Shown here: piece by piece, positions 50,005-61,447 of the stretch | How the letters are laid out: each line of letters starts with the position of its first letter | How positions within the stretch are numbered: the stretch's first letter is position 1 | Assembly (NCBI GenBank): GCA_011174795.1 | Contig: DUEY01000004.1 | Location: 101-64,100 of the forward strand | Source: Dehalococcoidia bacterium | GTDB lineage: Bacteria; Chloroflexota; Dehalococcoidia; SZUA-161 | Length of the DNA: 64,000 bases | Reading direction: 5' to 3' | Notes under the pieces: generated by a model | Told to the model about the DNA's origin: nothing | The model's database searches: none | Seen by the model: only the letters and a program-made list of their open reading frames with translations | Translations under genes and position numbers: made by a program

Positions 50005-50331
50005 CTAGGTTGGGTCGCCGGTGAACGAACTTTTAGGACTCGTGGCTCGTGACCGCCCTTTCCACCCCAGTGCCTTGAGAAAGTCGCCGACGGCTGTTTC
50101 CCTGTGCGCCGGATGGCGCAGCGAAATATCCGGGTTTATTCTGTAGCGATTGCGCCTTCCTTCCTTCTTGATATATATATATCCGGCTTCCGTTAAATCC
50201 GCAATGATCTTCCGTGTCGACCTTTCGGTAATACCGATAGCGTCTGCTATCTCCAGGGCAGTCATGCGGGGATGACGGGCGACAAAGCTCAACACCAAGC
50301 CATGATTCGTCAGGAAAGTCCATTCAGACAT
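50005..50331 (-). CDS. Winged-helix transcriptional regulator
   Basis: The start is placed at MSEWTFLTNHG (aa 38 of the ORF) after a GGAGGG RBS. The wHTH is MTALEIADAIGITERSTRKIIADLTEAGYI. Confidence 0.65.
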   Translation of the reverse strand: MSEWTFLTNHGLVLSFVARHPRMTALEIADAIGITERSTRKIIADLTEAGYIYIKKEGRRNRYRINPDISLRHPAHRETAVGDFLKALGWKGRSRATSPKSSFTGDPT

Positions 50332-50380: not shown

Positions 50381-50408
50381 TTGACAATTGTACAAATCGT
50401 GTTATAAT
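50381..50408 (+). promoter_or_regulatory. Near-consensus sigma-70 promoter in an AT-rich divergent region
   Basis: TTGACA (50381-86), 16 nt, then TATAAT (50403-08). It points toward the gene at 50562. Confidence 0.5.
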
Positions 50409-50561
50409 CTTCACGAAATATCCAACAGTATTTATAAAGCATGTTAATGTTTTCATTATTAATACTATTGAAACCTATTACAAAATATTTTGTAACACAA
50501 ATTGGGGAGGATTACAAATCCTGCGTCTAAACTGGTGAAATGACGGTTGAGGATATAGAGT

Positions 50562-50903
50562 ATGGCAACATCAAGTTTATTTAATCAAGAATTGCTGCAA
50601 TTCTGTGGCGAGCACGCGAGAGACCGATTCAGTATGGAACTCCTTGCCTTCTGGGGCAGACATCCCCATGGAAGGTTTACCGTCGGCGCTATTACCTGCG
50701 CTATGGATGCCAAGAGACTGAGTGTTGAGAGGGCGCTGAGGGGGCTGGTAGCACAGGGGCTTGTTACTGCGTCAGTTCAGAATGATAAAACACTGTACTA
50801 TCTGGTAGACAACGAAAAAATACGGCAGCAGATCGTTGAGTTGGCGGAGCTGAACTGGTGCGGTCGGAGGGCTATGGTGGAGAATCTCGGGTGTGAGCAC
50901 TGA
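50562..50903 (+). CDS. Hypothetical protein (possible wHTH)
   Basis: ORF of 113 aa. The segment LSVERALRGLVAQGLV is reminiscent of a recognition helix. No family is recognised. Confidence 0.4.
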   Translation: MATSSLFNQELLQFCGEHARDRFSMELLAFWGRHPHGRFTVGAITCAMDAKRLSVERALRGLVAQGLVTASVQNDKTLYYLVDNEKIRQQIVELAELNWCGRRAMVENLGCEH

Positions 50904-50941
50904 TGAGCTGAAGCCTGGCATTGGGCTGGAGGTTTCAAAAC

Positions 50942-51589
50942 ATGGTCTTCAACTTCTGGGAGAGAACGGAAGCAAAGAGATTGCCCGAACCAGTGCGCAC
51001 TTATATGAGGAAGCGGTTCATGCTCACGAGTGATTATATCGATGGTTTGAGGTGCTTCGAATTCGACGACGAATTTCACGGTGAACCGGTAAAGCGCTTG
51101 CACCTGTTCAGGCCGGAGGCAGTAAGAAACGCTGGTTTAATGGTAAGAACAGCCTCAGAACTAGAGCAGCATCCAGAGATTATCCTGTTTGAAGGGTATA
51201 CTGATGAACTGGGCAGGGTATATGTTGCTGACCGCCGCATGCCGACGAAAGCGGCGGTAAAGGGAACGAGCAGAACACTGTTACACATTCTCGCAAGATT
51301 ACATTTTTGTACCATCGCCCGTTCGCGCGGTAGTGAATCGGAAGGTTCCAAGCCATGTAGCGCTGGTCTCGCTGACAATAGAGAGAGCGATGCTAAAACC
51401 AGCGAAGTGCAGAATGGTTCGGGCAGGGGAATGCTGTATAAAAAGGCGGAGGAGCATGCAACTCCACGGACAGTACCGATAAAGAAGCTCGGTTCGTACG
51501 GGCCGGGAGCGGGCTGGCCTCATTCATATGAAAATAGCGAATTGCGCGAATGGCTTAACTCCTGGGAGCGGAAAAGAGATAGTGAATGA
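50942..51589 (+). CDS. Hypothetical protein
   Basis: ATG at 50942, 9 nt after GGAGG (the ORF track starts at 50921). No family is recognised. Confidence 0.4.
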   Translation: MVFNFWERTEAKRLPEPVRTYMRKRFMLTSDYIDGLRCFEFDDEFHGEPVKRLHLFRPEAVRNAGLMVRTASELEQHPEIILFEGYTDELGRVYVADRRMPTKAAVKGTSRTLLHILARLHFCTIARSRGSESEGSKPCSAGLADNRESDAKTSEVQNGSGRGMLYKKAEEHATPRTVPIKKLGSYGPGAGWPHSYENSELREWLNSWERKRDSE

Positions 51590-51772
51590 ATCCCCGGTAC
51601 GCGATTCAAAGCAGCGTTCCCCATGCGGCATCAGGGTCGAAGGCAGGATTCAACATAGCAGCAAACCTCATACAAAGGTTGAGAGGAGGCTGGCATGTGC
51701 AGGATTGACTTTGTTCTTATGAAAGGCACATTTCTCAGAGGAACCAAATTTGAAGGAAGGGGGAAACATTAG

Positions 51773-53089
51773 GTGCAAACTACAACCACGACTCTGCAAA
51801 GGGATTTACGTGAATTAGAGGAGGAAGAACCTCCAGGTACGAACGATACCCTAGACAGGGTAGAAGAACCCCCGAGCAAGACGGCAGCAACGAGGAGAAA
51901 CAAGCTCTTTGATTACGTCCCCGAGACAAACTGGAATGACTGGAAGTGGCAATTCAGAAACCGCGTAACCTCTGTAGATGAACTGGCAAGGTTGATACCC
52001 CTATCGACCAAGGAGCAGGCGCAGCTCAAACTGGTAACAACAAAATACCCTCTTTCGGTTCCCCCGTATTATCTGTCCCTCTTCGACATCGATAACCCGG
52101 ATGACCCCCTGAGAAAGCAGGCGCTCCCATCTTTTCATGAGCTTGGCCTTGCTGGCATGGGTGTCGAGGATCCTCTTGAGGAACAGAAGGACACTGCTGT
52201 ACCGGGGCTGGTTCACCGCTACCCCGACAGGGTGCTTATGGTGCTGACGGACTTGTGCCCTATGCTCTGCCGTCACTGTACGCGGAAGAGGGAATGGCAG
52301 TACGGAGGCTGGGTACGCACGACTGACGAGATAGAGGCCATGCTCGATTACATACGCATGAATAGGAGTATCAGGGATGTTATCATCTCGGGCGGTGACC
52401 CGCTCACACTGTCGACGCAGCGCTTGGAGCAGGTCATCTCAGAATTGCGGCGTATTGAGCATGTGGAGATAATCCGCATCGGCACCAGGTTTCCGGTGGT
52501 ACTGCCCCAGCGCATCGACGACGAGCTCTGTGCTATGTTGTCGAAGTATGGGCCACTATGGGTCAACACGCATTTCAACAACTCAAAAGAGATAACGCCG
52601 GAATCGGCACGGGCATGTGACCGTCTGCTGCGGGCTGGAGTACCGGTGAATAACCAGGCTGTCCTTCTCCGAGGGGTCAATGACACGGTGGAAGAGCATA
52701 CCAGGCTGTGCCAGGGGCTTCTCAAGATAAAGGTGCGCCCCTATTACCTGTACCAGTGTGACGAAGTCCGGGGAACGGAGCACCTTCGCACGCCGGTGGA
52801 GGCCGGCATCAGGATAATAGAGGGAATGAGGGGGCATACATCGGGCCTCGCCATCCCTACCTTTGTCATAGACCTGCCGCATGGCGGAGGCAAAGTTCCC
52901 CTCCAGCCTGACTACATGCTTATGCGAAAGGATGGGGAACTGATACTCAGAAACTACAAATACCAACTGTTTCGATACCGAAATCCAAATGGCCCTCGTC
53001 GCAAGAAAAACGGGCATAAAAACAATACAGCCGCGCGTAATTCGACTATCGGTCAAGCGAACAAGAGGGTGGCAGTTAACCCGGTGTGA
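51773..53089 (+). CDS. KamA-family radical-SAM aminomutase, lysine-2,3-aminomutase-like
   Basis: GTG start. Radical-SAM motif CPMLCRHCTRK. The sequence tracks clostridial KamA closely (NWNDWKWQFRNR, VPGLVHRYPDRVLM, RPYYLYQCD, TFVIDLPHGGGK). Confidence 0.85.
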   Translation: MQTTTTTLQRDLRELEEEEPPGTNDTLDRVEEPPSKTAATRRNKLFDYVPETNWNDWKWQFRNRVTSVDELARLIPLSTKEQAQLKLVTTKYPLSVPPYYLSLFDIDNPDDPLRKQALPSFHELGLAGMGVEDPLEEQKDTAVPGLVHRYPDRVLMVLTDLCPMLCRHCTRKREWQYGGWVRTTDEIEAMLDYIRMNRSIRDVIISGGDPLTLSTQRLEQVISELRRIEHVEIIRIGTRFPVVLPQRIDDELCAMLSKYGPLWVNTHFNNSKEITPESARACDRLLRAGVPVNNQAVLLRGVNDTVEEHTRLCQGLLKIKVRPYYLYQCDEVRGTEHLRTPVEAGIRIIEGMRGHTSGLAIPTFVIDLPHGGGKVPLQPDYMLMRKDGELILRNYKYQLFRYRNPNGPRRKKNGHKNNTAARNSTIGQANKRVAVNPV

Positions 53090-53099
53090 GGAGAGGTAA

Positions 53100-54107
53100 A
53101 TGATAGTAGGACTTTCTTATGACCTTAAGGAGGATGTGAGCCTCGGGACAGGATGGCCTGATGATGCCCTCGAAGAATACGACTCAAAAGAGACCGTGGA
53201 GGCCATAGCACACGCGCTTGAGGTACAGGGACACTCAGTGGTCTTTCTAGGTGGGGGAAGGGAGTTCCTGACCAGTATCCAGCGCCAGCGTGTTGACTTC
53301 GTGTTCAATATCGCGGAAGGGCTGGGAAACCGGAGGAGCAGGGAGGCCCAGGTTCCATCGGTACTTGAGATGCTGGACATACCATATTCAGGTTCGGACC
53401 CTCAGTGCCTGGCGATATGCCTTGACAAACCGCTGACCAAAAAACTTGTGGCGACAGCAGGTGTGGCCACACCGCGCTGGCGGGTATTCACCGACGTCGC
53501 TCAACTCAAAGAAGAGAACTGGGATGGGTTTCCTTTCCCTGTGTTTGTGAAACCAAGCCACGAGGGCTCCAGCAAGGGCATACGCTACCGTTGCCAGGCG
53601 CAGAACGTCAGGCAGACAATCGAACTGGCGGCGGAGTTACTCTCAAGCTACCAGCAGCCTGTAATGGTGGAGGAGTATATCAATGGCGACGAAATAACAG
53701 TTGGAATACTAGGCAACTCCCCACCCAGAATACTGGGCGTGATGCGTATTCTACCGCGTGACAGGGGGACTGACTTCATATATTCACTTGAGGTGAAGCG
53801 GGGTTGGGAAAATCTGGTCGAGTACGAGTGCCCCGCCAGGCTCAATCCCGGCGTCCTCAAGAAAATCGTCAAATCCAGCATGAGCGCCTTCAAGGTTCTG
53901 GGCTGTCGTGACATCGTCAGGATTGACTTCAGAGTGTCTTCCAGCGGGGTTCCCTATTTCTTGGAGATAAACCCGCTTCCCGGACTCAGTCCATACAATA
54001 GTGACGTGCCAATCATAGCCAGCAAGTCGGGCTGGACATACGATGACTTGATAGCAGCCATAATGGATACCGCTTTGCAGAGGTACACCAGTTGCATCTT
54101 ACAATAG
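53100..54107 (+). CDS. ATP-grasp ligase, D-alanine--D-alanine-ligase-like (1)
   Basis: CLDKPLTKKL, FPVFVKPSHEGSSKGI, MVEEYINGDEITVGILG, RIDFRV...YFLEINPLPGL. Confidence 0.8.
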   Translation: MIVGLSYDLKEDVSLGTGWPDDALEEYDSKETVEAIAHALEVQGHSVVFLGGGREFLTSIQRQRVDFVFNIAEGLGNRRSREAQVPSVLEMLDIPYSGSDPQCLAICLDKPLTKKLVATAGVATPRWRVFTDVAQLKEENWDGFPFPVFVKPSHEGSSKGIRYRCQAQNVRQTIELAAELLSSYQQPVMVEEYINGDEITVGILGNSPPRILGVMRILPRDRGTDFIYSLEVKRGWENLVEYECPARLNPGVLKKIVKSSMSAFKVLGCRDIVRIDFRVSSSGVPYFLEINPLPGLSPYNSDVPIIASKSGWTYDDLIAAIMDTALQRYTSCILQ

Positions 54108-55096
54108 CCATTATTTACAACGAGCCGGTCCCGGGGCACTACGAAGCTTTAGGTGAGAGGACGGCGGTTCTCGGCGTCCTTGAAGCCGTGGAAGCGGTGC
54201 ACCAGGCCCTGGTCGATTCTGGTTACTCGGTTATTCGAATGCCATTGCTGCCTCCAATCGAGTCCGTTAGACCCAGGCTTGAACCACTCGAAGCCGACCT
54301 GGTGTTCAATCTTTTCGAAGGCTTCGATGGCTGGCCCGGCTCGGAGGCTGCCGTTGCCGATATCCTCTCCGAACTAGGGCTGGCTTTTACCGGGTGCCCG
54401 AGCGCGTCCCTTTCCTTGGCTTTGGACAAGGGCAAGGCGAAAGCTGTATTCGAAGCTGCAGGGATACGCACGCCCCGATACCAACTGCTGAAACCGGAGA
54501 CCCTGGGCATGTTTGACCTCAGGTATCCGTGTATCGTCAAACCGTGTGCTGAAGATGCGAGCCATGGCATATCTGAGCTTAGTATCGTCAATGACCAGGC
54601 TTCTCTCGAAAGGCGTGTTGCCTGGGTATGCGATGCTTTCGGCGGTCTGGCGCTTGTCGAGGAGTATCTGGATGGACGTGAATTCAATGCCACGGTGTTA
54701 GGAACCGACGAACCCCTCGTTCTGCCGATTTCTGAGATAGTATATAACTTGCCCGTTTCCCTCCCCAGAATTCTCTGCTTCCCGGCAAAGTGGGAGCCGG
54801 AGAGCGTCTACCACCGCTGCACGGCACCGTTCTGCCCGGCGCAAATTGAGCCCGATTTACGGGAAAAAATCGCTGACTATGCCATCCGGGTTTTCAGACT
54901 GCTCGGCTGCTCCGGTTACGGCAGGGTGGATTTCCGCCTGGATGCCGCGGGGAACCCCGCCGTTCTGGAGGCAAATCCGAACTGTGACATATCGCCAACA
55001 GCGGGCGCGGCGCTTCAGGCCAGAACTGCCGGAATGGACTACCGGCAGTTTATCGATACCATCGTCCATCTTGCCCTGGAACAGCAACCGGCATGA
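54092..55096 (+). CDS. ATP-grasp ligase, D-alanine--D-alanine-ligase-like (2)
   Basis: TTG start overlapping the upstream gene by 16 nt. Motifs are ALDKGKAKAVF, YPCIVKPCAEDASHGI, LVEEYLDGREFNATVLG and RVDFRLD...VLEANPNCDIS. Confidence 0.75.
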   Translation: MHLTIAIIYNEPVPGHYEALGERTAVLGVLEAVEAVHQALVDSGYSVIRMPLLPPIESVRPRLEPLEADLVFNLFEGFDGWPGSEAAVADILSELGLAFTGCPSASLSLALDKGKAKAVFEAAGIRTPRYQLLKPETLGMFDLRYPCIVKPCAEDASHGISELSIVNDQASLERRVAWVCDAFGGLALVEEYLDGREFNATVLGTDEPLVLPISEIVYNLPVSLPRILCFPAKWEPESVYHRCTAPFCPAQIEPDLREKIADYAIRVFRLLGCSGYGRVDFRLDAAGNPAVLEANPNCDISPTAGAALQARTAGMDYRQFIDTIVHLALEQQPA

Positions 55097-55575
55097 CGCT
55101 TCACATTAGGTTCATGACCAAGAAAGACAAGCCTACCGTTGTACGGATACTCCGTGATACCACGGAGTTTAAGCCGATGGAGATAGCCGTTGCGGTGGAG
55201 GTTATCGACAGTTATCTGCGCGACCCGGTGGGCTCCGGCTATCATATCATCGTGGCAGAAATGGGCTCTCGTCTGGTCGGGTACTTGGCTTACGGCGCTG
55301 CGCCCCTGACAGAGGGTACCTGGGACATATACTGGGCCGCCGTTTCCCGCGAGGATAGGGGACAGGGCATAGGCAGCGCCCTGATGTCCCATGCGGAGGA
55401 TGAGATTAAAAAGGCGAGGGGGCGTCTGGCAGTAATCGAGACATCATCGAAGCCGGAGTATGAGAGGACGAGGCGTTTTCATCGCAAAACCGGGTACGAG
55501 TTGGCTTGTACGGTCAAAGACTTCTATGCGCCGGGCGATGACAAGCTTATATTCCTGAAGAAGCTCGAGCTCTGA
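55093..55575 (+). CDS. GNAT-family N-acetyltransferase
   Basis: An ATGA start/stop overlap with the upstream gene. The acetyl-CoA motif is RGQGIGSALM. Confidence 0.8.
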   Translation: MTLHIRFMTKKDKPTVVRILRDTTEFKPMEIAVAVEVIDSYLRDPVGSGYHIIVAEMGSRLVGYLAYGAAPLTEGTWDIYWAAVSREDRGQGIGSALMSHAEDEIKKARGRLAVIETSSKPEYERTRRFHRKTGYELACTVKDFYAPGDDKLIFLKKLEL

Positions 55576-56263: not shown

Positions 56264-59110
56264 ATGAAAGCCATAATCTTCTGCGCTGCACTGACTCTGG
56301 TCATCATCGGTTCCCTCATCTTTCCCGCTATCGCGGTGGGGGAAGCCGGGGTTGTCGAGCTTGAGGGCTCGGAAAGCTGTGAGGTCACTGCCTTCTCCGA
56401 TGACTTCGAAGGCTCTGTAGCGCCCTGCTCCAGGTGGGACGAAGCCTGCATGGACCAGTGGCACGGAGGAAACTGGTGGTGCGCCCGTGACCAATCACAC
56501 AGTCCCAGCCGGAGCGCAAAGGCGGACCATAATCACGATGACATCCTCCATACTGATTCTATCGATTTATCAGATGCAATATCAGCTACTCTTGAGTTCA
56601 ATTACATGCACTTTGGCACGGACTCTGATGATTTCACCCTGTACTTCTATGACGGAACCGAGGGTGAATTCCCCGCAGGGTGGAACATTATAGCTGAACT
56701 CGGCAGACAGGGAGCCGACCTCCAGTGGCACCACTACAGCACCACTATCGATATTACTACATATGGCATCTCCGACTTCAAGGTAGGCTTTGACGCCGAT
56801 CTGGGCTGGGTCTTCCCATTTATCTCAGAACTGGCGTGGATAGACGATGTCGTTGTGACCAAGCAGGTCTCTGAATATGCCTCCTCCTTCTCCGATGACT
56901 TTGAAGTCTCTGAAGCGCCCTGCTCCAGGTGGGACGCAGATTGCATGAACCAGTGGAACGGGGGAGACTGGTGGTGCGCTAAGGACCAATCGCACAGTCC
57001 CGGCCAGAGCGCGAAGGCGGATTTTAACCATGATGACATCCTCTATACCGATCCCATTGACTTATCCGGTGTTACCGGGGCAACCGTTGAGTTCTGGTAC
57101 AGGCACTTTGGCACGGATTCTGATGATTTCACCCTGTACTTCTATGACGGAACCGAGGGTGAATTCCCCACAGGATGGAACGTTATAGACGAACTCGGCA
57201 GACTGGGAGCAGATAACCGGTGGCACTTCTACCACACCACTATCAAAGATACTGATACGTATTGCGTCCCCGACTTCAGAGTAGGCTTTGACGCAGATAT
57301 GGGTTGGGTCTTCCCATTCATCTCAGAGCTGGCATGGATAGACGACGTAGTTATAACCCCTCCCCTGGAGGGAACGGTGTTCGAAGATAGTGACGGTGAC
57401 GGGATGAGGGATGAGGGTGAACCCGGTATATCCGATATAGTAGTCTCCAACGGTGTGGACGTCACCGTTACTGACTCAACCGGGGCTTACACTCTGCTTA
57501 AGGATGGCTATTTCATCTTTATTACTGTCCCCAGTGATTACACACCGACCACTCCTTGGTACCGGAGCGTGGAGGGAGATGAATTTGACTTCGGTCTGGA
57601 ATATACCCCGGAAAAAGCTACAGAGGAATTTACCTTTGTCCAGATCACAGATATCCACATAGATTCTATACCCGAACGTATATCGCTCTTTCAGCAGGAT
57701 GTAGCGGAGATCAATGATATTGACCCTCCGTTCGTGATAGATACCGGCGACCTGGTGAGCAGGGGGGATGAGGTAAGCATTGCCCAGGCCAATGAATGGT
57801 TCGAGGTCTATGCGGATGTGACGAGCGATTTTAACATGCCTTTATATACTGCGGTCGGAAACCATGAGCTTGTCGGCACTAACAATCCCGATGTTGATCC
57901 GAGTGAGCCCGGGTACAATAAGGAAATGTATCGTGATTACTTCGGGCCAACATACTATTCGTTCGATTGGGGTGGATATCACTGCATCGTTTTAGACGCA
58001 AATCAATTTGAGGATGGGCGCCGGTTCTACGGTGTTGAAGATCAACAGCTAGAGTGGCTCGAGCAGGATCTGGCTCAAAGACAGGGTAAGCCAATACTGG
58101 TCTTCTACCATGAGCAAACTCCCTTGTGGGAAGAGAACCGGTATGAGGTCTGGGACATGCTCACCGCACATGGCGAGATGACTGCTTTCTTGGGGCATCT
58201 GCATCATGATATTCTGATGATGGATAGTTACAACCAGGGTGTCCCCGAGCAGGTCACCGGTGCCCTGTGCGGGCAGTGGTTTTGCGGGCCAAATATCGAT
58301 GGCGTACCTCGGGGTTATCGAATCATCTCCGTCGATGCCGACGGTGTCTCCAGTTTCTACAAACATTCCGGCACGGAAACGCAGATAAATATTACCTCTC
58401 CCGATGAGATTGTGAGTGGAGCGGTAACATTGACAGCTCAGGTCTATACCGAGTATGGGCCTGTCACAGGAGTGAGCTATCGTGTAGACGATAGCGGGCT
58501 CATACCGATGTCGCTCGAAGCAGGAGGGCTATGGGATACCGCCACCGCAACGTGGGATACGACCCTATTGGAGCCGGGCTACCATACTGTCACCGTAGAG
58601 GCAACGGACGCTGTTGCGGGCAACTTCTCCACAGAGAAGTCATTCAAGATTGCAGTTGAAGATGCAATACCTCTCGGTGAGCTTTTCGACCATTACGGGA
58701 CATTTTTAGGGAAGTATACCAATGTGACAGGGAATTTAACCCTCGTCATTCCTTATGGTGGTGGTGGTGGTGGTACGGTGACAAACACCGCGTACATTGT
58801 GGATGACGGAGATGGAATCGCTGTGATAATTGCACAAGCCTGCGTAAGCCCGCCTCTCCCGGAACTGTTCGCAGGCGACACAATAAGTGCCAGAGTTGTA
58901 CCCGTCATGTACACGTGGGAGCTTATATCAGAAGGTGGCAGGATACTGCCGGGAGGATGGTTGGGCGACCTTCTCATAGGCATCATGGAGGGAGCCCCGT
59001 GGCTTGTGGAGCTTTTCCTACCGGACTTTCTGGTAACCGATGAGGACGGTAATCCAATAGAAATAAGGCTGTTAACACTGCTGAGTGCGGCAGATATCGA
59101 GGCGCTTTAA
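56264..59110 (+). CDS. Secreted calcineurin-like metallophosphoesterase with two N-terminal copies of a Cys-containing ~165-aa domain
   Basis: Signal peptide MKAIIFCAALTLVIIGSLIFPAIAVG. Metallophosphoesterase motifs are ITDIHID, DTGDLVSRGD, GNHE and GHLHHD. A MetallophosN-like segment (VFEDSDGDGMRDEGEPGISD) precedes them. Confidence 0.75.
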   Translation: MKAIIFCAALTLVIIGSLIFPAIAVGEAGVVELEGSESCEVTAFSDDFEGSVAPCSRWDEACMDQWHGGNWWCARDQSHSPSRSAKADHNHDDILHTDSIDLSDAISATLEFNYMHFGTDSDDFTLYFYDGTEGEFPAGWNIIAELGRQGADLQWHHYSTTIDITTYGISDFKVGFDADLGWVFPFISELAWIDDVVVTKQVSEYASSFSDDFEVSEAPCSRWDADCMNQWNGGDWWCAKDQSHSPGQSAKADFNHDDILYTDPIDLSGVTGATVEFWYRHFGTDSDDFTLYFYDGTEGEFPTGWNVIDELGRLGADNRWHFYHTTIKDTDTYCVPDFRVGFDADMGWVFPFISELAWIDDVVITPPLEGTVFEDSDGDGMRDEGEPGISDIVVSNGVDVTVTDSTGAYTLLKDGYFIFITVPSDYTPTTPWYRSVEGDEFDFGLEYTPEKATEEFTFVQITDIHIDSIPERISLFQQDVAEINDIDPPFVIDTGDLVSRGDEVSIAQANEWFEVYADVTSDFNMPLYTAVGNHELVGTNNPDVDPSEPGYNKEMYRDYFGPTYYSFDWGGYHCIVLDANQFEDGRRFYGVEDQQLEWLEQDLAQRQGKPILVFYHEQTPLWEENRYEVWDMLTAHGEMTAFLGHLHHDILMMDSYNQGVPEQVTGALCGQWFCGPNIDGVPRGYRIISVDADGVSSFYKHSGTETQINITSPDEIVSGAVTLTAQVYTEYGPVTGVSYRVDDSGLIPMSLEAGGLWDTATATWDTTLLEPGYHTVTVEATDAVAGNFSTEKSFKIAVEDAIPLGELFDHYGTFLGKYTNVTGNLTLVIPYGGGGGGTVTNTAYIVDDGDGIAVIIAQACVSPPLPELFAGDTISARVVPVMYTWELISEGGRILPGGWLGDLLIGIMEGAPWLVELFLPDFLVTDEDGNPIEIRLLTLLSAADIEAL
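56393..57361 (+). repeat. In-frame tandem duplication (2 x ~495 nt) inside the phosphoesterase gene
   Basis: The FSDDFE.S.APCSRWD..CM.QW.GG.WWCA.DQSHSP...HFGTDSDDFTLYFYDGTEGEFP.GWN...VGFDAD.GWVFPFISELAWIDDVV unit occurs twice. Long stretches are nucleotide-identical, e.g. cactttggcacgga.tctgatgatttcaccctgtacttctatgacggaaccgagggtgaattcccc. Confidence 0.8.
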
Positions 59111-60319: not shown

Positions 60320-61447
60320 TCACCATTGAACGAACATCGGCATCACAACGTGGAGGTATTTATCGTTCCCTACGGGGCGGATGAGGCCGGGGCTCGAACT
60401 GCTCGTGGTCTCCAGGGCCACCTCTTTCTCGGTGATGACCTGCAGGACATCGAGCAGGTACTTGCTGTTGAAGGCGATCTTGGCCTCCTCCCCTTCCACC
60501 GTAGCATCGATCTCGCCGAGGTTGTCGCCAATCTCCTCGGCTCGGGCTGAGATATCGATTTTGCCGCTGCCGTCCTTGGGCATTATCTGGAGACGCACAA
60601 TGCCGCTGCCGTCACGGGCGAAGATGGAGGCGCTTCTCGTCGCCACGAGGAAATCGGAGAGCTTGATTACAGCTCTGGTACTGTAGCTCTGGGGAATCAG
60701 CTGGTCGTAGTTGGGGAAGGTGCCTTGGATCAACTGGGAGACCATCTCCACGCCGCTCATCTTAAACAGCACCTGGCTCCTCTGGGAATTAACGGTGACC
60801 TCCAGGGGCTCCTCCTGGTCGCCGAGGAGGCGTCCCAGCTCGTTAAGCGAGCGTGCCGGGATAATAACGGCCATCTTCTCCTTGATGGCTGCATCTAGGG
60901 ACATTGTATGAACCGCCAGGCGGAAGCCGTCGGCGGCGGCGAAGGTGAGCTGGTCCCCATCGAAATCGGTGTAGACGCCGGTGAGAACGGGGCGCGACTC
61001 CTCGGACGCTGCGGCGAACACCACCTGGTTTATCGCCAGCCTGAGCGCGTCGGGCTTGACCGTAACCTTAATCCCGTCCTCGATGGTAGGGATTGCGGGG
61101 AAGTCTGCCGCGTCCAGTCCGCTGATGCGTGCATCGTAGCGGGCGCACTTCAACTCGAGGCTCTTGGAACGGGCCGGGAGCGTCATCTCGATCTGGCCGC
61201 TGGGCAGCGAGTTGACGAAATCGGTGAGCAACCGTGCCGGCACGGTGAGCGTGCCTTCCTTCTCCACGTTGGCAGCGATCCAGCAACTGGTGGCTATTTC
61301 GAGATTGGTTGCGGCCAGCTTGAGCTGGGAGCCCTCGGTGGCTAATAAAACGTTGTTGGTGATGGGCAGGACCGCCCTCGTGGCTACCGCCCTCCCCACC
61401 ACTGCCAACCCCTTACTCAGGTCTTCCTGAGAACACGAAACCTTCAT
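60320..61447 (-). CDS. dnaN: DNA polymerase III beta sliding clamp
   Basis: LSKGLAVVGRAVATRAVLPITNNVLL...LKLAATNLE in a protein of about 375 aa with a three-domain layout. Confidence 0.9.
   Translation of the reverse strand: MKVSCSQEDLSKGLAVVGRAVATRAVLPITNNVLLATEGSQLKLAATNLEIATSCWIAANVEKEGTLTVPARLLTDFVNSLPSGQIEMTLPARSKSLELKCARYDARISGLDAADFPAIPTIEDGIKVTVKPDALRLAINQVVFAAASEESRPVLTGVYTDFDGDQLTFAAADGFRLAVHTMSLDAAIKEKMAVIIPARSLNELGRLLGDQEEPLEVTVNSQRSQVLFKMSGVEMVSQLIQGTFPNYDQLIPQSYSTRAVIKLSDFLVATRSASIFARDGSGIVRLQIMPKDGSGKIDISARAEEIGDNLGEIDATVEGEEAKIAFNSKYLLDVLQVITEKEVALETTSSSSPGLIRPVGNDKYLHVVMPMFVQW

Follow-up and report, generated by a model that had tools for sequence, protein, structure and literature searches.

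What does a lysine 2,3-aminomutase-like enzyme contribute to a gene cassette that also encodes two ATP-grasp proteins similar to Ddl (D-alanine–D-alanine ligase) and a GNAT-type acetyltransferase? The question is raised by a 64,000-nucleotide stretch of Dehalococcoidia bacterium contig DUEY01000004.1, hereafter called the window, in which the list of open reading frames (ORFs) placed four consecutive genes on the forward strand:

51773 to 53089, + strand: kamA-family aminomutase, 438 amino acids (aa), GTG start
53100 to 54107, + strand: ATP-grasp ligase 1, 335 aa, ATG start
54092 to 55096, + strand: ATP-grasp ligase 2, 334 aa, TTG start
55093 to 55575, + strand: GNAT, 160 aa, ATG start

Sequence and genomic comparison led us to favor, with moderate confidence, a function in which the cassette would produce a small-molecule peptide that is derived from beta-lysine, joined by the ATP-grasp ligases and N-acetylated. 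The enzyme families are familiar ones; their combination is a conserved and unstudied pathway.

Inspection of the junction sequences identified a 10-nt spacer containing GGAGAGG between the kamA TGA and the ligase 1 ATG, a 16-nt overlap of the two ligase genes that is contingent on the TTG start, with GAGG 8 nt upstream of this TTG, and an ATGA overlap between the ligase 2 and GNAT genes. All three spacings were as described in a first-pass annotation of the window made from its letters and ORFs. The lengths of the four proteins given by public gene callers for identical contigs agreed with the window ORFs, and a consensus scan of the four-gene block detected no internal terminator or promoter signals above shuffle expectation. 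The four genes are best read as a single operon. Rfam searches gave no riboswitch or leader RNA match in the whole window at the gathering threshold, and no match at E ≤ 1 in the region 50400 to 52000. An all-versus-all blastn comparison of the 450 nt upstream of 68 kamA genes found no conserved non-coding block upstream of the window kamA.

Ligase 1 has thousands of close homologues, the named ones being Chloroflexi/Dehalococcoidia proteins called ‘D-alanine--D-alanine ligase’, and its relatives occurred in at least 588 genomes at one genome per GTDB species. Loci from the best 80 of these genomes were compared by tblastn with the four window proteins. Nearly all of the 80 were metagenome-assembled genomes (MAGs) of Dehalococcoidia or other Chloroflexota, and one locus (L053) was labeled uncultured delta proteobacterium. 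The order kamA–ligase 1–ligase 2–GNAT was kept, together with the spacing, in 74 of the 80 loci. A contig end interrupts the cassette in the other six (L013, L060, L064, L068, L082 and L083), and there were zero counter-examples. This arrangement is far beyond chance. The flanks vary among loci, and clustering of flank ORFs from 78 loci yielded no further universal gene beyond the four. Across the class Dehalococcoidia, ligase 1 is 58–72% identical. The same gene order extends to at least three other phyla and was also found in Desulfovibrio mangrovi, a G20-like Oleidesulfovibrio contig, Desulfocarbo indianensis, one Planctomycetota MAG, one Bacteroidota MAG and a 1.18-Mb metagenomic contig; these distant cassettes are 45–50% (KamA), 36–38% (ligase 1), ~30% (ligase 2) and 38–40% (GNAT) identical to the window proteins.

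Gene fusions connect the aminomutase and the ligases more directly. A HMMER search with ligase 1 against 1.84 billion cluster representatives returned 968 at E ≤ 1e-30, and the top 150 of these were parsed with hidden Markov models of the four families, examples being checked by Pfam. This set included three KamA–ligase 1 fusions (P0187, with 739 aa, P0235 and P0239), one reversed ligase 1–KamA fusion (P0248) and 16 representatives of a ligase 1–ligase 2 fusion, plus many other double-ligase proteins. In the KamA fusions the ligase moiety scores as ligase 1. On comparative grounds, the KamA–ligase and ligase–ligase fusions argue strongly for a shared pathway of aminomutase and ligases and for joint action of the two ligases. 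The first-pass annotation had proposed a survey for kamA/ATP-grasp/ATP-grasp/GNAT synteny; the linkage was found in the large majority of loci and in several phyla, fusions included.

The aminomutase contains the Pfam domains Radical_SAM and LAM_C, and its sole match among solved structures was Clostridium subterminale lysine 2,3-aminomutase (2A5H, 2e-130, residues 40–405). Alignment to 2A5H placed the radical S-adenosylmethionine (SAM) motif CxxxCxxC at CPMLCRHC (C162, C166 and C169) and the alpha-carboxylate arginine of clostridial KamA, R134, at R171. KamA D293 aligned with D330 of the window enzyme, in YQCD, KamA D330 with D367, where VVDAP of KamA is replaced by VIDLP, and the lysine that binds pyridoxal phosphate (PLP), K337 in KamA, with K374 in GGGK. 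The four motifs singled out in the first-pass annotation (CPMLCRHC, GGGK, YQCD and VIDLP) were thus confirmed. The cysteine motif, arginine, aspartate pair and PLP lysine are at least 97% conserved among 69 orthologues, and identical in the distant cassette homologues (Desulfovibrio, Planctomycetota) and in a KamA–ligase fusion protein; the N-terminal ~15–40 aa and the C-terminal tail are poorly conserved. In clostridial KamA the aspartate pair reportedly binds the epsilon-ammonium group of lysine, for which a literature search gave no confirmation, and in glutamate 2,3-aminomutase (Eam) it is said to be replaced (Lys/Asn).

Comparison with NCBIfam models placed the enzyme within the general KamA family (TIGR00238, 347 bits, cut-off 199), the only model that it passed. 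The AblA model was the best of the specific models (TIGR03820, 473.7 bits, cut-off 525.4), followed by those for glutamate 2,3-aminomutase (TIGR04368, 441.3 bits, cut-off 650) and arginine 2,3-aminomutase (TIGR04468, 396.8 bits, cut-off 600), and EpmB was the worst KamA model (TIGR03821, 245.2 bits, cut-off 369.3). Five further cassette aminomutases and one fusion ranked the models in the same way, with AblA scores of 428–491 bits; EpmB scores across the cassette aminomutases were 238–262 bits versus the cut-off of 369. Alignments to the AblA model stopped near position 360–377 of 417, so that the last ~40–55 positions had no match, and it is because of this divergent C-terminus that the enzyme falls just outside the curated AblA clade. 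From these comparisons we conclude that the protein belongs to the KamA family and has a lysine-type active site. It is most likely a lysine 2,3-aminomutase, and a basic compound other than lysine is a less probable substrate. The earlier preference for lysine over glutamate as substrate agreed with the model ranking and with retention of the lysine-binding aspartate pair, and the enzyme grouped neither with EpmB nor with the glutamate aminomutases, the two outcomes that had been named as contrary to it.

Other assignments were considered for the aminomutase. EpmB was ruled out by its score and by the lack of epmA or efp neighbors, and glutamate 2,3-aminomutase by its score and by the presence of both aspartates. 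A role in lysine fermentation of the kamA-kamDE-kdd type was rejected because such partner genes are not linked.

Both ligases matched Dala_Dala_lig_C in Pfam (6e-39 for ligase 1 and 3e-25 for ligase 2), and Pfam detected no Mur_ligase domain in either. They are paralogues with 29% identity (4e-35, BLASTP), about as close to each other as either is to any Ddl. The best Ddl scores in NCBIfam were 193.7 bits for ligase 1 and 137.8 bits for ligase 2 versus a cut-off of 243 (NF002378), and both proteins were even further under the cut-off of every other Ddl/Van model. Sequence and profile searches of the PDB gave strong matches to Ddl/VanA proteins only (1e-36 to 1e-22). The L-amino-acid ligase BL00235 was a weak profile match (4e-7 versus 1e-36 for Ddl), and cyanophycin synthetase a marginal one (5e-4) over ~100 residues of its ATP-grasp part only. 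An AlphaFold2 model of ligase 1, with a mean predicted local distance difference test (pLDDT) score of 85.3, had Escherichia coli DdlB (2DLN) as its top Foldseek match, with template modeling (TM) scores of 0.76/0.83 and 26% identity.

We aligned DdlB, the sequence of which was checked to be identical to 2DLN, with each of the two ligase orthologue families. The DdlB residues that contact nucleotide, Mg and acyl-phosphate (K97, K144, E180, K215, R255, D257, E270 and N272) are kept in both. These catalytic residues are invariant among 81 orthologues of ligase 1, and in ligase 2 they are represented by K113, K150, E190, K233, R278, D280, E/D293 and N295, conserved among 76 orthologues, the equivalent of E270 being either E or D. 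Substrate-site positions were occupied as follows:

DdlB Y216: R234 in ligase 1 (81/81), W234 in ligase 2 (76/76)
DdlB H63: E73 in ligase 1 (81/81), E76 in ligase 2 (76/76)
DdlB L282: D302 in ligase 1 (81/81), not assigned in ligase 2
DdlB E68: R81 in ligase 1 (81/81), not conserved in ligase 2

Where DdlB has its E15 loop, ligase 1 contains an invariant acidic N-terminal motif (D22, E25, E26, Y27 and D28) and ligase 2 a single invariant E22. Both proteins appear to be active Ddl-clade ATP-grasp enzymes that form amide bonds and whose substrate pocket has changed. The acidic cluster that ligase 1 would present around the Ddl substrate site (D22, E25, E26, D28, E73 and D302) may bind di-cationic beta-lysine. 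It is because of this invariant cluster, and because the KamA-fused ligase scores as ligase 1, that we propose ligase 1 as the ligase that handles beta-lysine.

Public records (NCBI and JGI) label both ligases ‘D-alanine--D-alanine ligase’, an annotation that is very probably wrong. The first-pass annotation had named ordinary cell-wall Ddl paralogues as the finding that would undo its proposal. That description does not suit these proteins, which failed the Ddl cut-offs, are changed at the Y216, H63 and L282 positions and are invariantly linked to kamA. No other Ddl-like or housekeeping Ddl gene was found within the window. The position of DdlB S281 is Asn in the window ligase 1 (N300, 53997–53999) and Ser in 77 of the 81 orthologues.

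The GNAT belongs to the Pfam families Acetyltransf_7/1/10, and its acetyl-CoA motif R-x-x-G92-x-G94 as well as Y135 are conserved among 73 orthologues. NCBIfam gave only sub-threshold matches to RimI (36.3 versus 86.4 bits) and PRK03624, and the beta-lysine acetyltransferase model of this library, which we take to be TIGR03827, gave no match at E ≤ 0.001. The best PDB match was 2R7H (5e-30), a structural-genomics structure that bears the name ‘putative D-alanine N-acetyltransferase’ and shares 99% sequence identity with P0275, a protein encoded on Oleidesulfovibrio G20-like contigs. Judged by these family models, the GNAT is not an AblB homologue. Stand-alone GNAT orthologues of 160–190 aa (P0293, P0313, P0324, P0343, P0369 and P0376) carry the JGI name ‘D-alanine-D-alanine ligase’, which looks like a systematic mis-annotation traveling with the cassette.

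These data bear on the simplest explanation of the locus, an ordinary AblA/AblB pathway to N-epsilon-acetyl-beta-lysine beside two cell-wall D-Ala-D-Ala ligase paralogues. The names given to both ligases in public annotation and the rank of AblA as the best aminomutase model would suit it, but it is contradicted by the position of both ligases under all Ddl cut-offs, the R or W at Y216 and the E at H63, the invariant linkage to kamA, which extends to gene fusions, the absence of an AblB model match for the GNAT and the absence of mur/fts genes nearby. We consider this explanation highly improbable.

An accessory protein adds to the picture of the acetylation step. A protein of ~580 aa, with a weakly GNAT-like N-terminus and a C-terminus of the histone-deacetylase (HDAC) family, lies beside or inside the cassette in ~14 Dehalococcoidia loci and likewise in D. 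mangrovi, Desulfocarbo and the Planctomycetota MAG, with L086, L088 and L089 among the loci of this kind. Its best solved relatives are acetylpolyamine amidohydrolases (8e-71), a type of deacetylase that acts on small-molecule N-acetyl-alkylamines. When the immediate neighbors, 64 upstream and 69 downstream genes, were sorted by Pfam family in a census, the counts were as follows:

Immediate upstream neighbor: ArsB/CitMHS permease, 8/64
Immediate upstream neighbor: MFS, 7/64
Immediate downstream neighbor: Hist_deacetyl, 8/69
Immediate downstream neighbor: MarC, 8/69

Mur/Fts families were not among the 25 commonest Pfam families of these neighbors, and efp, epmA, LysW and mur genes were not linked in either the window or the census. 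The window itself lacks homologues of HDAC, S58, S66, ArsB, MarC and MFS proteins.

The frequent MFS, MarC and ArsB/CitMHS neighbors and the pairing of the GNAT with a deacetylase would also suit a cassette that made a secreted bioactive peptide or antimetabolite, with N-acetylation and deacetylation serving as self-protection or a pro-drug cycle. Such a cycle operates for some ATP-grasp dipeptide antibiotics, and antibiotic pathways of the L-amino-acid-ligase type employ ATP-grasp enzymes. However, the order is kept in at least 74 Dehalococcoidia species genomes with ligases that are 58–72% identical, whereas antibiotic clusters are typically patchy and fast-evolving. Tailoring enzymes and a resistance-target paralogue are absent, and the relation to BL00235 is weak. 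A bioactive peptide is therefore an improbable product.

Variant loci bear on two further explanations. In L085 (3181–6368), a double ATP-grasp fusion of 682 aa is immediately followed by a gene of the Peptidase_S58 (DmpA/BapA) family, and a KamA gene was not called there. The S58 family includes beta-peptidyl aminopeptidases, and the two L085 genes may be a synthesis/degradation pair for a beta-amino-acid peptide. The order in L084 (6164–11253) is an ArsR-type helix-turn-helix (HTH) protein, a 66-aa LysW-like zinc ribbon with an acidic tail, a 110-aa protein, a 739-aa KamA–ATP-grasp fusion, an S66 peptidase and a weakly LysX/RimK-like ATP-grasp protein. The 110-aa protein has a hydrophobic N-terminus and looks putatively secreted, and the locus as a whole may point to a related pathway that uses a carrier protein. 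The fusion in L095 (3852–8088) is reversed, with ATP-grasp before KamA (695 aa), and comes after a 305-aa uncharacterized protein and a class-I/V aminotransferase. Neither a second ligase nor a GNAT was found near it, so L095 represents another variant of the pathway.

The peptidase genes adjoining the related ligase genes (S58 in L085 and S66 in L084) would be in keeping with ligases that act iteratively to form a beta-lysine polyamide, a reserve or polycation similar to cyanophycin or poly-lysine in which the GNAT would cap or neutralize amines. Two paralogous ligases, fused in some proteins, could then be an initiation/elongation pair or a heteromer, and the sigma-54 (NtrC-type) activators found upstream of the Desulfobacterota cassettes are compatible with nitrogen control. 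Against such an oligomer or polymer, neither the window nor most of the 78 Dehalococcoidia loci have a linked peptidase or depolymerase, the relation to cyanophycin synthetase is marginal and lacks the Mur-ligase-like domain, and the accessory enzyme that recurs beside the cassette is similar to a deacetylase of acetylpolyamines, which are small molecules. An oligomeric product seems unlikely on this evidence.

The LysW-like zinc ribbon and the weakly LysX/RimK-like protein beside the KamA–ligase fusion of L084 raise instead the possibility that beta-lysine is attached to a macromolecule, i.e. a protein, carrier protein or envelope precursor, as in the modification of elongation factor P (EF-P) by EpmA/EpmB, of S6 by RimK, of LysW by LysX or of peptidoglycan by D-aspartate ligase. 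EpmB, a KamA-family enzyme, feeds a protein modification, and strong sequence conservation would suit a housekeeping role. However, EpmB is the worst-scoring model for the cassette aminomutases, efp, epmA, LysW and mur genes are not linked, the LysW-like gene is confined to one variant locus and is absent from the window, and to our knowledge all characterized Ddl-clade enzymes act on small molecules. Macromolecule modification is accordingly about as improbable as a bioactive peptide.

The small acetylated peptide that we favor could arise in four steps. Judging from the conserved active-site residues, the KamA-type enzyme would first convert L-lysine to beta-lysine using radical SAM chemistry, a [4Fe-4S] cluster and PLP. 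The fold, catalytic residues, linkage and fusions of the Ddl-fold ligases suggest that they would carry out the second and third steps as a pair or heteromer, each forming an acyl-phosphate and then an amide bond, with beta-lysine participating in at least one of the bonds. Ligase 1 is the likelier beta-lysine-binding enzyme, and ligase 2 would supply the second amide-forming step or act as a partner subunit. Lastly, the GNAT would use acetyl-CoA to acetylate the remaining free amine, most likely at the epsilon-aminoalkyl end because the recurrent acetylpolyamine-amidohydrolase-like deacetylase could reverse the modification there. The predicted product is a small N-acetylated di- or tripeptide containing beta-lysine that would stay in the cytoplasm or be moved by the nearby permeases.

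Several observations weigh against this proposal. The substrates and product are inferred entirely from sequence and genomic comparison, and iterative action of Ddl-fold enzymes could also yield an oligomer. The case for the acidic cluster relies on an uncertain N-terminal alignment in a part of the model where pLDDT is ~71–73, and a family-level relation of the GNAT to AblB is not detectable. Neither a dedicated aspartokinase or other lysine-supply gene nor a known osmo-responsive riboswitch was linked to the cassette in the neighbor census and Rfam searches. By their names, carrier MAGs come from lakes, groundwater, aquifers and peat and also from the Black Sea, and this wide occurrence in freshwater, groundwater and peat MAGs, together with the class-wide conservation of ligase 1, suits a housekeeping function no less than it does a salt-specific osmolyte.

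As to physiology, our leading guess, and no more than a guess, is that the product serves as a compatible solute or stress protectant. A compatible-solute role is suggested by analogy to AblA/AblB and to N-acetylglutaminylglutamine amide (NAGGN) synthesis; we regard an osmolyte function in itself as doubtful. Scattered hints of an osmotic context accompany individual cassettes, namely Kdp in L003, MscS in L084 and an AA_permease–Usp fusion in L088. A broader and more tentative idea, which we find plausible although we stop short of calling it probable, is that the cassette makes an undescribed N-acetylated beta-lysine peptide built by the first beta-amino-acid-specific Ddl-fold ligases, and that this product serves Dehalococcoidia, along with anaerobes of the Desulfobacterota, Planctomycetota and Bacteroidota, as a widespread, possibly near-housekeeping cytoplasmic solute or as another small effector (such as a stress protectant or a thiol-/polyamine-like cofactor). 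A search of the literature that covered open-access papers, subscription journals being largely outside it, found no paper treating the cassette or joining aminomutase, ATP-grasp and beta-lysine, and nothing relevant to the cassette in work on Dehalococcoidia osmolytes or Desulfovibrio.

In its logic the cassette is closest to the AblA/AblB pathway (Pflueger et al. 2003, cited in PMC9337991) and next to NAGGN synthesis. It shares with AblA/AblB a lysine 2,3-aminomutase and an acetyl-CoA-dependent GNAT encoded in one operon, with beta-lysine as the presumed intermediate. It differs in the two ATP-grasp ligase genes that stand between the two, in the window and in all 74 complete loci, in an aminomutase that falls under the AblA cut-off and lacks the end of the model, and in a GNAT without a beta-lysine acetyltransferase match. 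Thus, the ablA/ablB logic put forward in the first-pass annotation held for the aminomutase, for which AblA was the best model, and did not hold for the GNAT. Because the GNAT is not AblB-type by family match, ‘ablA/ablB plus insertions’ describes an analogy and not a homology.

Synthesis of NAGGN by Ngg/AsnO reportedly likewise combines ATP-grasp peptide ligation with N-acetylation by a GNAT to yield a small capped dipeptide solute. That pathway is said to use other amino acids and no aminomutase, and its ligase, Ngg, to come from a different ATP-grasp branch and to be fused to the GNAT, a description that sets it apart. The cassette ligases share with Ddl (2DLN) the three-domain fold, by the TM scores of the ligase 1 model, and the ATP, Mg and acyl-phosphate residues, whereas they are ~25% identical to it, fall under all curated cut-offs, have changed substrate residues (Y216 to R/W, H63 to E and L282 to D) and are encoded next to kamA and not next to mur/fts genes. 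In the EpmB/EpmA system of EF-P, too, a dedicated ligase receives its beta-lysine from an aminomutase of the KamA family, but that ligase is a paralogue of lysyl-tRNA synthetase and not an ATP-grasp enzyme, EpmB fits the cassette KamA worst and efp is not linked here. Cyanophycin synthetase and the L-amino-acid ligases (BL00235 and BacD) are also ATP-grasp amide-bond formers that use free amino acids; they are only remote profile matches to the cassette ligases, in which the Mur-ligase-type domain is absent. In sum, the cassette departs in at least one tested defining feature from AblAB, Ddl, EpmB, glutamate or arginine aminomutase and cyanophycin synthetase.

Dehalococcoidia are an abundant, mostly uncultured subsurface and marine lineage, and hundreds of its species as well as several sulfate reducers carry the operon. 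To identify the product would be to extend bacterial small-molecule biochemistry by a new beta-amino-acid peptide, to give the Ddl fold a new class of substrates and to set thousands of annotations right. It could also account for the way in which these anaerobes cope with osmotic, nitrogen or other stress. The pathway is directly testable because cultured and genetically tractable Desulfovibrio relatives carry the cassette and because its GNAT has a crystal structure (2R7H).

Genes flanking the operon within the window included a candidate regulator:

50005 to 50331, - strand: winged-helix regulator (Pfam HTH_24, 1.6e-7, and MarR_2)

Homologues of this regulator lie upstream of kamA in 25 loci, mostly divergent from it and often ~500 bp away. 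They are not universal, and the window protein is tentatively a candidate cognate regulator of the operon. Just upstream of kamA is a 222-aa ORF (50921–51589, + strand) with no Pfam or NCBIfam match. It is a member of a genuine family of small proteins, with a ~100-aa core and, in common with L004 and L021, a C-terminal ‘SYGPGAGW’ motif. In seven other Dehalococcoidia loci a homologue lies upstream of kamA and on its strand, directly adjoining it in L062, L067 and L071.

PADLOC returned zero matches to anti-phage defense systems in the window. Downstream of the operon, 56264–59110 (+ strand) encodes a 948-aa protein in which the N- and C-terminal domains of calcineurin-like metallophosphoesterases occur together with SdrD_B and Big_7 domains. 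Near its N-terminus is a tandem duplication of a ~165-aa Cys/Trp-rich module, ‘FSDDFE..APCSRWD...TLYFYDGTEGEFP...AWIDDVV’, which has no Pfam match. Further downstream, the 375-aa product of 60320–61447 (- strand) looks by eye like the DNA polymerase III beta clamp (DnaN), and therefore the operon may be within ~5–10 kb of the replication origin region.

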